Shown: positions 66 through 63,391 of the stretch, one piece after another
How the letters are laid out: every line of letters begins with the position of its first letter
Numbering within the stretch: position 1 is the first letter of the stretch
NCBI GenBank assembly: GCA_964016885.1
Contig: OZ024763.1
Location: forward strand, 20,956,001 to 21,020,000
DNA: 64,000 nt
Source of the DNA: Eledone cirrhosa
Lineage: Eukaryota
Direction: 5' to 3'
The notes under the pieces: generated by a model
Seen by the model: the letters and a program-made list of their open reading frames with translations, nothing else
Told to the model about the DNA's origin: nothing
Databases searched by the model: none
Made by a program: the position numbers and the translations under genes

Positions 66-106
66 CAAAGTTCTTTCGTTGCACATCTGCAACATCGTCA
101 GTGGTG
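66..106 (-). ncRNA. Hammerhead ribozyme motif (weak stems I and III) in PLE 3' region
   Basis: Minus strand reads CTGACGA-T-GTTGCA(GATG)TGCAAC-GAAA; stem II is a perfect 6 bp. Confidence 0.6.
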
Positions 107-374
107 CTATTGTTTCCTCCCGTTACATTGTATTTTCTACGCCATCTTTATTTAGTCTGTTTATATATTTATTTATTTGTTTATTCTATTTTGTCTTCTT
201 TGCGCATGCGTTTGCGTGTGTGTATAGTGTTTTGTTTGATGTGTGTTCGTGATTGGGTGACTGTGTATTGGTTAATGTATTCTATCTTTACTAGTGTGTG
301 TTTATATGTGTTTGTTGTTATTGTGCTTGTGTATGTATTTATTTATTTATTTATCTATTTATTTATTTATTTAT

Positions 375-656
375 TTATACTTCTCTTAGGTCAGTGTTGT
401 TTGTTTGGGTGTTGTTGTTATTCCATTCATTCTTTCTGTTTAGCCTTGGCCTTCTAAGTTCTATTTCACTGGCCTCTCTGATTTGCCTATCTGCTGGGTC
501 ATTTCTATGTTTAGATATTATTCTAATTTCTATGTTGTCTATGTTACCGTCGTGTTGTTGTCTGGCATGTTCGTATAGTACTGACCCATTTTTTCGTCCT
601 TTTAGTTCCCCCCAGTGTTGGTCTATCCTTTCACCTATGCTACGAGCTGTCTCATA
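375..656 (-). pseudogene. Penelope-like element, GIY-YIG endonuclease C-terminal fragment
   Basis: Manual translation, absent from the ORF track: YETARSIGERIDQHWGELKGRKNGSVLYEHARQQHDGNIDNIEIRIISKHRNDPADRQIREASEIELRRPRLNRKNEW...*. Matches the GET.RS..ER..EH / RQI.EA..I / LN.K.EW pattern of PLE endonucleases. A hammerhead core lies downstream. Confidence 0.8.
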
Positions 657-907
657 GTTGTCATATATATATATACGTGGTTAGTGTTAGGAAGGACATC
701 CAGCTGTAAAAACCCCAGCTAAAATACAATTCTGTTCGATCGAGGTACGGCACAGCCAACTGCCCAGACATGTATCATAACGTGGACACAGTTCACTTCC
801 TGAACTGGGCAGTGCATTGTGTTCTTGTGCAAGACACTTCATTTTCAAATACAGTGTCTTTCATTAGAAATATGGTAACGAAAGAGTTAACGATTTATCA
901 TTACTTT

Positions 908-1082
908 GTGGCATGGAGTTATGTACCTTTGCATTATATGTTCAAATCCCACCAAAGTTAGCTTTGCCTTTCATCCTTACAGGGTTAATAAAATAAAGTA
1001 CCAGTAATGCATTGGGGCCAATTTAATTGACTTCCCCCTCCACCAAAATTGTTGATCTTCTGCCTGAATCAGAAACCATTAT
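908..1082 (+). mobile_element. tRNA-derived SINE, family N (GCCTTTCATCCTT..GGG.TAATAAAATAAAGTACCAG core)
   Basis: B-box-like GTTCAAATCC plus a conserved core found in many other copies in the window. Confidence 0.75.
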
Positions 1083-1436
1083 AAAATGCTTCTATTGAAA
1101 ATTCTTTTCCTTTTCTTTTGTCTACCACAAATCATAAAATCTAAAGAGTTTTTAACTCAGAGATTGTCATAACCAATATCAAGTTTCTCTTTTAGAAAAA
1201 CCTTGTATCTATTGAACAAAAGTTATACAATGATGGGAATATTAAAAAAAGGATAAAAACAAAATTAAGTAATTAAAAAAAGGGGAAGGGGTAAAGAAGG
1301 GCAGATTGACTGTATAGGAAAGTAAAGGAAAGGACTGTAAATGCCATAAATGAGAAGGAAAGGAAGGAAAGAGCAAGGACTATTAGGTAACAGAAGAAAG
1401 AAAAGGGGATTGAGGAGAGGGTGGCAGACTCTACAG

Positions 1437-1690
1437 CTAGGTCGGAGTGGTGTTTCGGATGCACCCTGCAGACAAAATTGCAAAGTTATTTCCGCGGACA
1501 GTGGCCAGCGACACCCACTGCAACAGCCACCCCACCTCGTGAGGCTTCTTCCTCAGACTGGCTACTGTTGTTCCAATTTTACAGAGGCGCTCGGCTGTAC
1601 AGGGTCTAAGGACACCTGCGACCAGTTCAACAGCTCCACAGTGATCACAATCTATTTACTTGATCACGATTTGGTTTTGTTTCTTTGAAC
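1437..1690 (-). pseudogene. Degenerate C-terminus of an RLE-type (CRE-like) non-LTR retrotransposon
   Basis: Minus frame reads AVELVAGVLRPCTAERLCKIGTTVASLRKKPHEVGWLLQWVSLATVRGNNFAIL, resembling the CRE-clade AVET.G..GP / WL.QR.SLA..RGN..IL end motif. Confidence 0.6.
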
Positions 1691-1761
1691 TAGTTCTCTA
1701 TCAGTTTCTTTTTCTTTTTCCTATTTTCTTATTTTCTTAATGCGTTCAATACCAAACCACC

Positions 1762-1992
1762 TTAACTCTTTAGCATTTAAATTGGCTCTATCCGGCCAGA
1801 ATTCTCTCACCTCTTTCTGTTCAAACCAGCTATAACTGGCCGCTCATACTGACGTTAAGGCATTGTTCTCAAAATAAATAATATCAAAATCTCATAGATT
1901 CGATATTATGTGAGATAATTATGTAAGATAAAGCCTTTACCACAAAAATACAATAGTAAATATATAGAGTAATGTAAATGCTATAGGGTTAA
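1762..1992 (-). mobile_element. TTAA-flanked piggyBac-like MITE, family A
   Basis: TTAA-C(T)CTTTAGCATTTA...TAAATGCTA(T)AGGG-TTAA terminal inverted repeats. Homologous copies near 4921-5337, 14670-15331, 17087-17502, 41427-41945, 53886-54309 and 55256-55477. Confidence 0.8.
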
Positions 1993-60580: not shown

Positions 60581-60979
60581 CAACCCTTAGATGTTCTAGA
60601 TATAAATAAGAAATATAAATTGTAAGTAGCGACAGTTGTTGTCGGCTCTTTGGTTATCTCAGTTCTTATTTCTTAAAAAAAGAATATTTTTTATTATTTT
60701 TATTTATTTATTATGATAGTCTACTAAGATCTTGATTTGTATTAAAAAACACACACTAACAAAAAAAGGTACTCTTACAGTAGAAAGACACAATCAACTC
60801 TTCCATTAGTTTCGAAAAATAAGATTTAATTAAATTGAAAGATTTCCGGTAGAAAGCTTTATGGGTTTATGAGAAGTCTTGTTGTTGTCTTTAGATATGT
60901 TTTATATATGACCTTTGCCTTGTTCTGTTTGTTCTTATGTATGTATGCTGAGCTAGAGTATATGATTGATATTTTACAA

Positions 60980-61330
60980 TAGTAGTAGTGGTGCTGGTAG
61001 TTGTTGTGGTGGTGGTGGTGGTGGTGGAAGTAGTAGTATTAGTGGTGGTAGTGGGAGTAGTGGTGGTGGTGGTGGTAGTTGTTGTAGTTGTGGTGGTGGT
61101 AGTAGTAGCATTAGTAGTAGTAGCAGTAGTAGTAGTAATGGTAGTAGTAGTAGCAACAGTGGTGGTGGTGGTAGTAGTAGTAGTAGTTTTTGTAGTAGTA
61201 GTAGTTGTGGTGGTGGATGTTGTAGTAGTTGTATTAGTGGTGGTGATGGAAGTAGTATTAGTAGCAGCAATAGTAATAGTGATGGTAGTAGCAGCAACAG
61301 TAGCAACAACAACAGTAGCAGCAGCAGTAA
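60980..61330. repeat. (GTA)/(GTG) trinucleotide repeat, followed by (TC)n at 61467-61606
   Basis: Read directly from the sequence. Confidence 0.95.
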
Positions 61331-61660
61331 TTGAAGTTAAGATTAATACATAGGCATACATGTGCATTTGAGTATGAAAATGAATAACGATTCATTATTT
61401 TCTTTTCTAATTTTATGATATATTTAATTATGAAGATAACGAGAGAACTTACAATATATATATACATCTCTCTCTCTCTCTCTCTCTCTCTCTCTTTCTC
61501 TCTCTCTCTCTCTCTCTCTCTCTCTCTCTCTCTCTCTCTCTCTCTCTCTCTCTCTCTCTCTCTCTCTCTCTCTATCTCTCTCTCTCTCTCTCTCTCTCTC
61601 TCTCTCTATATATATATATACGATATTAACAAATGGAAACTATATTTATAAAACCATATT

Positions 61661-61725
61661 TATTTCATTATACATATTTCAAGGACACCAAGTTAAATTA
61701 TGGTGTGCTTTCATCAGATAAAATA
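61661..61725 (-). ncRNA. Type I hammerhead ribozyme, family H1
   Basis: TATTTTAT-CTGATGA-AAGCACACCA(10 nt)TGGTGTCCTT-GAAA-TATGTA-TA-ATGAAATA; compensatory changes relative to the other copies. Confidence 0.9.
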
Positions 61726-62685
61726 TAATATAGAGCAGTTTTATAAATAAATATTGACATACCCTTAAAGAATGCAACCATTACTGTTGGAAGCTCCTGG
61801 ATAGTGGAGTTATATCTTTAATTATACTATTAGGTAAGTTAGTATTGGATATTTTTAAATAAGCCGTTGGGTTACGGAGAAAGAGAGAGAGAGAGCAGAA
61901 CAACAGAGAGAAAAAGAGAGAGGAGAAAGAGAAAGGAGAGAGAGCGAAAACTCTAAGTCATATCTTGTTGAGTTATCTTAACATTTGAAATGAAATGAAT
62001 AAATAAAATTAGAAATGTTAATAATCATGAATGGAAGATACATATATAATATGAGAAATTTAACCATTGTTTAAATATGATTAAATGTTTAGTTAATCAG
62101 TTAAATATTGAGATACAATAAAAATTGAGATCTATATATTAAGAAATCTATATATTATTATTAAGACTATATTATTAAAAATCTATATATTATATAACAC
62201 ATATACACACGCAAAAATACAAACATATAAATATATATACACACGTATAAAAATATATATATACATATCTAACTACGTATATAATATATACATACAAAAT
62301 ATAAAGAATTTTATAATTTAAGATATAGGAATCTTATAAAATCAGAGAAAATCATTTCAATGTCATATCAAAGCAGCGTGAAGGAAAATTACGTTATTTA
62401 GTTATATAAATGTTACGATTGTTAAGATATTAAAGGAAATTTTATGTTATACACACTTTGTTATTAAACAAATTTTTTTTATATAAGTTTTATAAGATTA
62501 CCTGTTATGTAGTTATGACTGTTATTATATGTTTATTTGTCACGAACCTTGGGTTAATCCCTATAAATAAGTGCAATCGAATTGTATGCATATACACATA
62601 TATATACATACACAATTCCCACATATACATACATATATGTACCCACACAAATAGGTAGATATGCATTACATATATATATATATAT

Positions 62686-63030
62686 GTGGAGGCACATGGC
62701 TTAGTGGTTAGAGCATTGGCCTTGCAATCGAAAGGTTGTGAGTTCAATTCTCAGACCGGGTGATGTGTTGTTTCCTTGAGCAAGACACTTTATTTCACAT
62801 TGCTCCAGTTTACTCAGCTGTAGAAATGAGATGATAGGGACTGGGGTCCCTATCATTCCACTGCAAAGTGGTCGTGGAGGTGCCACGGCAAAAAAGCACC
62901 CAGCGCTCACTGTAAATGAGGTTGGTGTTAGGAAGGGCATCCAGCTGTAGAAATCAAGCCAGAATCAGTTCCCGTCCCACCCTTGCAAGCAGGGAAAAGT
63001 GGACGTAAAATGAAATGAAATGAATGAAAT
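62686..63030 (+). mobile_element. Complete tRNA-head CORE-type SINE with a chimeric RTE tail
   Basis: A box TGGCTTAGTGG, B box GTTCAATTC, CORE-like CCTTGAGCAAGACACTT..CAGTTTACTCAGCTGTAGAAATG, RTE tail and (TGAAA)n end. Confidence 0.88.
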
Positions 63031-63332
63031 GATACATACAGATAGACATACACGCATAAAATATATGTACATGTATATCAATACACACATACACATATAT
63101 ATACACACATATAGAGACAGAAGTATATATAAATACAGTATCTTTACTCCAATTATTTGTTGAGTGCTTTATATCAGTTATAAAAATATTAGCTTGTATA
63201 TAATATAAATAGAACTTTTACATATATATATATATAAATGAAGTAATTCCGTCGGAAAAGTCCAGGAAAAAAGAGTGCTCTATGTAGGTAACAGAGCTTA
63301 ATAGTTATGTAATAAACAACATAAGGCAATTA

Positions 63333-63391
63333 TTCCATTTACCAGTGGTTTCTTAAAAGCAAAAAATTTGCTTTTAATCCTCAGAATGAAA
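63333..63391 (-). ncRNA. Type I hammerhead ribozyme, related to family H3
   Basis: TTTCATT-CTGAGGA-TTAAAAGCAAA(TTT)TTTGCTTTTAA-GAA-ACC(ACT)GGT-A-AATGGAA; flank 63245-63340 is homologous to 31050-31145. Confidence 0.88.

Follow-up and report, generated by a model that had tools for sequence, protein, structure and literature searches.

The ends of Penelope-like elements (PLEs) are the known main source of hammerhead ribozyme motifs in animals. The minimal PLE hammerheads described by Cervera and de la Pena (2014, PMC4209133) are of type I with an extra nucleotide at 9/10.1 and a palindromic helix III region. They fall into many families per genome and lie mostly singly or on opposite strands 100-700 bp apart, the opposite-strand pairs being ascribed to truncated PLEs. 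PLEs of the Hydra clade (PMC8557442, section 11) encode a C-terminal endonuclease with a CxCx5C linker and with CxxC and CxH flanking its E and N. They carry a hammerhead near the 3' end, target (TA)n and leave inverted 5'-truncated copies; the supplement of that paper includes an Octopus bimaculoides family, Hydra-1_Obim, with (TA)n preference. The protein of the anole Poseidon element PAc (Frangieh et al. 2024, PMC11167929) cleaves AT-rich DNA on both strands and starts complementary DNA (cDNA) at two internal RNA sites, giving two discrete 3' ends downstream of the hammerhead; uncleaved RNA serves as template and the hammerhead cuts only with the protein. Pen1_Av of Adineta vaga (Arkhipova et al. 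2013, PMC3846280) has its 3' pseudo-long terminal repeat (pLTR) 0.9-1.5 kb from the open reading frame (ORF), and in its sister families the published pattern is that of inverted pLTRs, only one side of which bears a tail. Non-LTR retrozymes (Cervera and de la Pena 2020, PMC7229834; Li et al. preprint 2026, 10.64898/2026.07.22.740005) are PLE-related, short non-coding DNAs with type I hammerheads, arranged as head-to-tail repeats of 150-450 bp. A 2026 repeat annotation of O. vulgaris counts PLEs in a main text where ribozymes do not appear (PMC13282606), and no octopus hammerhead survey was among our literature search results.

We analysed 64,000 nucleotides of Eledone cirrhosa DNA (assembly GCA_964016885.1, contig OZ024763.1, positions 20,956,001 to 21,020,000, forward strand), hereafter the window, whose first letter is position 1. 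It holds eleven hammerhead motifs. These are type I hammerhead sequences, most likely in 3' terminal repeats of several PLE families, left as 5'-truncated, often head-to-head copies in TA microsatellites, with family A likely of the Hydra clade and families B and C likely its sisters. Hammerheads at PLE ends are expected, since such ends are the main source of these motifs in animals; TA targeting, inverted arms, tails and an octopus Hydra family are likewise known. Apparently new, in that we did not find them in print, are a repeated hairpin behind the ribozyme, TA-bounded ends in two bands ahead of it, and the pairing of one short with one long end.

Hammerhead motifs of five families

The window has a GC content of 34% and abounds in TA microsatellites, RTE-like LINEs (long interspersed nuclear elements) as well as short repeats. 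A preliminary inspection of the letters (the sequence-only reading) had claimed eleven intact-core motifs of at least five sequence families. All eleven CTGANGA...GAAA cores were found where it had placed them, eight on the minus and three on the plus strand, each with CUGANGA, GAAA and UH core in type I order. They form five families (A-E) in eight or nine insertions, four of the motifs belonging to A. A strict type I descriptor (stems I and II of at least 3 bp each, A15.1-U16.1, a closing pair and H17) is passed by nine of the eleven and by zero further sites in the 64 kb. Locally dinucleotide-shuffled windows (n = 150) give a mean of 0.05 matches and a maximum of 1, so that the motif frequency does not equal that of shuffled sequence. 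Bare core matches number 18 versus 4.7 +/- 1.9 in shuffles and, with a shorter gap, 13 versus 2.7, a count reached in 0/100 shuffles. The two descriptor failures, 66-106 with a stem I of 2 bp and 31214-31290 with pairing lost at the base of stem II, keep the core letters and look decayed.

Among the six copies of A and B, stem cells are paired in 98% of cases and 9 of 19 pairs carry double changes. Their covariation score is equalled in 0/500 shuffles, slid controls being only 31-51% paired; the structure was drawn from the same A and B sequences and the changes are mostly a contrast of two families, which makes the score lean in favour. Judged by these patterns, the motifs are selected hammerhead sequences. 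An Rfam scan of the window returned no hammerhead family among the 150 listed of 351 matches, in which TA repeats dominate. In minimum free energy (MFE) folds dimers gain 2-11 kcal/mol over monomers; the dimer folds are often non-ribozyme ones, and the gain is therefore not counted as support.

The minimal type I form with a palindromic stem III, named for PLEs in the sequence-only reading, fits the motifs in part. Helix III of A, B and C is roughly palindromic, in C of the 7-8 nt type of Hydra-like relatives; it is short and not absent, and unlike the form of PMC4209133 these three families have a long bulged helix II. Only D, perhaps also E, is minimal: the D hammerhead has an extra A at 9/10.1, a 4-bp stem II, no loop III and a predicted cleavage after 3113. 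Family A, with an AUAU/AUGU loop III and an AUA triplet, differs by eye from the motif listed for Hydra-1_oBim in the supplement of PMC8557442.

Two sites of a relaxed core scan, 28565 and 15964, were not counted as extra hammerheads, their scores lying within the shuffled range. The first belongs to a 234-nt TA-flanked piece (28516-28749, plus strand) with a possible degenerate twelfth hammerhead at 28565-28592, whose core has two changes and whose stems I and II are of 4 bp each. The second (15964-15993, plus strand) could be a U3-A8 core variant with a 5-bp stem II and a 4-bp stem I, with no repeat context seen. The 91-nt array 57236-57785 has CTGATGA beside GAAA, yet failed the descriptor.

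Truncated insertions with one short and one long end

Table 1. Arms and elements bearing hammerheads or related tails (window positions; H17, predicted cleavage nucleotide)
Family and feature	Position	Strand	Remarks
A, main arm, likely Hydra-type PLE cut off inside the reverse transcriptase (RT)	22059..25200	-	hammerhead 22101-22165, H17 22109; short 3' end
A, inverted arm, long end	25191..25321	+	starts ~5-15 nt from predicted cleavage site; hairpin motif 25240
A, main arm without ORF, 1.7 kb of 3' untranslated region (UTR)	46442..48146	-	hammerhead 46490-46554; short end
A, inverted arm, long end (tail ~48374-48461)	48147..48461	+	hammerhead 48264-48328, H17 48320; hairpin motif 48376
A, main arm without ORF, 3' UTR piece	61613..62560	-	hammerhead 61661-61725; short end; match clear to 62312, weak beyond
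A, tail-only inverted arm, long end	63125..63221	+	hairpin motif 63146
B, left arm, short end, TA-bounded	28829..28991	-	hammerhead 28873-28928, H17 28878
B, right arm, long end	29080..29390	+	hammerhead 29189-29243, H17 29238; hairpin motif 29300
C, left arm, long end	31045..31213	-	hammerhead 31140-31208, H17 31145; hairpin motif 31103
C, right arm, short end into (TA)n	31214..31321	+	hammerhead 31214-31290, stem II base decayed
C, second insertion, long end into (TA)n	63236..63495	-	hammerhead 63333-63391, 11-bp stem II, H17 63340; hairpin motif 63297
D, TA-bounded 340-nt element	3010..3350	-	minimal hammerhead 3108-3144
E, 5'-truncated PLE end, into (TA)n	59..655	-	hammerhead 66-106, decayed stem I; endonuclease C-terminal remnant ~423-655

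Protein sequence analysis ties two families to PLEs. The family A ORF remnant (25200-23929, minus strand) ends inside the RT and has one in-frame stop. Family A is likely a Hydra clade PLE because the GLYRDD, the CxCx5C linker, the CxxC before E and the CxH after N in its translation match features listed in PMC8557442. It has 268 protein relatives, each of at least 645 aa, the best with about 40% identity; 120 of them were inspected for motifs, giving CxCx5C in 111, DKT in 105 and RWK in 84, the RWK/DKT region being absent from the window copy. The family E remnant has 104 protein relatives in a full phmmer search (best E 7.7e-18), unlike in a word-seeded search, which gave no match. Its longest relatives are RT-endonuclease proteins with an RT-like YVDD/YKDD motif, a Cys linker and Y.GE[TS], and two show weak GIY-YIG Pfam matches below cut-off. 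A Neptune-type CX2-5CxxC linker occurs in 42/104, mostly fragments, the window copy covering the last ~80 aa only; by the description in PMC8557442 the longest relatives appear Neptune-like. Pfam has no match in the A or E remnants, nor in four full-length relatives, and a pattern scan of metagenome contigs for family A gave 0 matches. The earlier statement that only two motifs adjoin coding remnants holds for the Hydra-like and E-like protein profiles used, with which family D gives no coding match.

The family A 3' UTR measures 1772 nt from stop to core and is non-coding; this length explains why most family A copies are without coding sequence. The ORF-less copies are 70-87% alike to the UTR of the 22-kb copy, up to 23816 for the 46.4-kb copy (homologous to 22059-23816, with another repeat inserted at ~47320-47510) and up to 22798 for the 61.6-kb copy. 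The description of the motif carriers as small, non-coding, TA-flanked elements is thus right in that most lack an ORF, and does not fit the family A pieces, which are 0.9-1.7 kb of PLE 3' UTR. Three family A insertions have three different 5' ends. Five of the six family A arm ends run into (TA)n, and the other borders on a CAT repeat.

The 3' ends of family A are of two kinds, ~50 and ~140 nt beyond the predicted cleavage site. The main arms all have the short end, and each stands head to head with a long-end arm (22059/25321, 46442/48461, 61613/63221); in the third pair the tail-only arm is the likely partner, separated from its main arm by another repeat. The arm at 48147..48461 equals its main arm at 226/230 letters. 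The same short-plus-long layout is found in C (31045/31321; arms equal at 102/108 letters) and in B (28829/29390, possibly two events; 119/153 aligned letters equal). The second C insertion equals the first at 89/108 letters; the two start ~10 and ~110 nt ahead of the ribozyme. All five head-to-head pairs therefore combine one short with one long end and display the PLE insertion anatomy of 5' truncation, inverted 5' copy and tail on one end. Hammerhead form, hairpin and end pattern suggest that B and C are likely sister families of Hydra-clade A.

Four public sequencing runs from three studies, one of which (X1) is possibly the source of the window itself, were aligned to 46672-48462 with an 85% cut-off. 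Loose ends running into (TA)n pile up at 48373 in all three studies (X10, 5693 reads; X1, 60 contigs; X5, 1 contig). Strand-switch joints occur at many different positions, and one public contig (X1 record 7) has a sixth short-plus-longer inverted layout with other breakpoints. Depth on the last 230 nt is ~100-fold above that of the UTR, about that of the common repeat inserted in the stretch, and is not a copy number.

Since the hammerhead-bearing arms all read through the cleavage site, their templates were uncut there. Two tail-only arms start 3' of the site, one of them within 5-15 nt, a single case that would fit a cleaved template. Run X1 also contains a joint of depth 629 between 48320 (the predicted cleavage nucleotide) and 48264 (where stem I starts), with two letters in between; it could represent either an inversion or a hammerhead core in tandem.

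Other details concern the surroundings of these insertions. An element with 85-nt inverted ends (99%) lies at 48479-49058, directly after a family A long end. A similar end precedes 46442, and the A insertion at 46442-48461 may therefore sit inside an element of this type. The long ends of A and C face each other at 63221-63236 across a 15-nt TA run. In the relatives' loci L019:136, L042:319 and L067:2810 minimal, D-like hammerheads are found a short way upstream of Hydra-like elements, and (TA)n comes after every one of them; the same microsatellites there take up insertions of different PLE families.

A hairpin behind the ribozyme

In Hydra-like relatives the hammerhead lies 68-522 nt after the ORF in 43 of 78 loci, 62 of which had at least 150 nt of room. 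Behind it stands a hairpin, GCTC..(stem, 2-nt bulge)..GAGCACT, often twice. It is found in 35/48 copies with enough sequence against 3% in shuffles, and a GAGC(A/G)C half with an upstream RCTY occurs in 32/41 distinct tails cut at fixed positions, blind to the motif. Hairpin letters outside the search pattern are near-invariant as well, and the core pair exceeds 0.5 on folding in 23/32 instances. The hairpins start at +38-61 and +101-130, and all 16 TA-bounded ends fall at +33-49 or +95-116, the end bands opening just ahead of the hairpins. In 11 of 13 loci the end of the second hairpin and the ATG that follows it are 16-40 nt apart.

In the window the pattern, widened to admit the ACTC/GAGT variant of A and B, occurs at six places in 64 kb, all in long tails of A, B and C, and begins 2-12 nt past the short end where this can be placed. 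The hairpin likely positions reverse-transcription starts. A different role for the family A tail, encoding the start of the ORF, was rejected (best E 0.56). We found no description of the hairpin in the literature, most subscription papers and most of the PMC8557442 supplement lying outside the search; 'hairpin' and 'stem-loop' are absent from the main text of PMC8557442, and one of the consensus sequences of that paper contains the motif.

The layout leads us to a tentative hypothesis, which falls a little short of being the probable one: in RNAs of Hydra-clade PLEs the twice-repeated GCTC/GAGC hairpin would be the landing signal of the enzyme, and a single transcript would be primed at two fixed sites, each target strand having its own, producing both the short-plus-long inverted insertions and the PLE 'tail', and seeding a hammerhead every 6-7 kb or so here if the window is typical. 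In the main explanation of truncated PLE ends, a tandem transcript would have the order ORF, 3' UTR, hammerhead, hairpin 1, hairpin 2, next ORF. The RT-endonuclease of the element would nick (TA)n on both strands, and two cDNAs would start internally on RNA not cleaved at that hammerhead, the short-end cDNA just 5' of hairpin 1 and the long-end cDNA further 3', before hairpin 2 in relatives, with the two target strands presumably using different starts. Both cDNAs would usually stop early and then join head to head. The ribozyme could act as a weak, dimer- or protein-assisted cutter that trims tandem RNA, and is probably not needed for insertion. Nearly every insertion would leave one or two hammerheads because every copy begins 40-150 nt 3' of the ribozyme.

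PAc differs in that it starts inside the ORF, in an AC-rich stem loop, whereas the Hydra-like hairpins are in the 5' UTR and the ends lie just 5' of them. Family A departs from described Hydra clade PLEs by its 1.77-kb 3' UTR, its tail of ~60-95 nt (theirs 30-40) and its ACTC/GAGT hairpin variant; the spacer of Pen1_Av varies between copies, whereas that of family A is shared family sequence. The hairpin offers a concrete RNA signal, amenable to mutation, for something that Craig et al. call open, the origin of PLE tandem and inverted structures and tails, in a clade so far without biochemistry. It also gives a practical means of annotating those PLE ends without an ORF that would stay unclassified in repeat pipelines.

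Counter-evidence, alternatives and neighbouring repeats

Several observations weigh against truncated PLE ends or against the role proposed for the hairpin. MFE folds give the three-way junction in only some copies. The family A UTR is more than three times the longest among relatives; at 3142 nt, although cut inside the RT, the element does not match the Hydra trait 'generally shorter than 3 kb'. B, C and D have no linked RT-endonuclease ORF in the window by the Hydra-like and E-like profiles, so that their autonomous parent is inferred; coding remnants of the Penelope/Poseidon clade may lie beside them. Among the Hydra-like loci with room 20 lack a hammerhead downstream of the ORF. With a profile built from relatives' tails, the two C tails come out on top, at E values of only 0.11 and 0.21, and those of A and B are missed; the second hairpin is not recognisable in or beyond the A, B and C tails. 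The two B arms start at nearly the same homologous point, and the changes between them are compensatory; they are possibly two insertions with a fixed start. Depth drops ~20-fold just 5' of the hammerhead, as a short fixed-length subfamily would also cause. Fold-back palindromes of non-PLE sequence occur at 2690-2997 (98%), 30327-30718 (96%) and 58105-58319 (76%).

The start of the B arms, the depth step and the ~100-fold higher depth on the last 230 nt speak for the idea that B, D or a short A subfamily are non-autonomous, fixed-length PLE derivatives, copied in trans by the PLE enzyme in the manner of short interspersed nuclear elements. Such derivatives are described for Chlamys in PMC8557442, and a non-autonomous PLE derivation is proposed for retrozymes in the 2026 preprint. 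The 85% cut-off confounds the depth step, sharp near 48232, as the likeness among UTR copies is only ~70%, and the loose ends at the drop are diverged homologous sequence. A shared 5' end among ORF-less copies was not found for A, with its three different ends, nor for C, and the strand-switch joints in reads are scattered. We therefore consider this explanation unlikely overall, a fixed-ended derivative being possible for B and D. Shared UTR, differing 5' ends and the lack of tandem arrangement make 5'-truncated PLE ends the most likely origin, and not a separate non-autonomous class. Of the two origins offered by the sequence-only reading, truncated PLE ends are thus the one favoured, through the A ORF remnant, the shared UTR, the E endonuclease remnant and the downstream hammerheads of relatives.

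The other origin, a non-autonomous retrozyme-like class mobilised by the PLE RT, is not supported, B (with both arms starting at about one point) and D (a single copy) being possible exceptions. Non-LTR retrozymes, tandem hammerhead repeats expressed as small circular RNAs, are known from molluscs, where solo copies of them remain (PMC7229834; 2026 preprint), and the 48320/48264 joint of run X1 could point to their monomers. The window has no two consecutive head-to-tail units each with a hammerhead: same-family motifs on one strand are at least 15 kb apart, no tandem array contains a hammerhead, paired copies are head to head, and the A copies share the 3' UTR of an autonomous element. That the motifs are retrozyme monomers is most improbable. 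That single PLE ends were duplicated later by fold-back to give the paired arms, which would then not be products of one insertion reaction, is hardly credible in spite of the palindromes of other repeats, since a fold-back would add no tail missing from the other arm, yet 5/5 pairs show one, and inverted pLTRs with a one-sided tail are the PLE pattern of PMC3846280.

RTE-like LINE copies include two long ones, at 18270-21710 and 9780-13230, both on the plus strand; in the former, an RT frame of 823 aa contains a PHD-like Cys cluster. Their 3' pieces recur at 25700-26640 and elsewhere. Units of the tandem arrays 57236-57785 (91 nt), 6849-8685 (48 nt) and 14681-15187 (72 nt) come from pieces of dispersed repeats.

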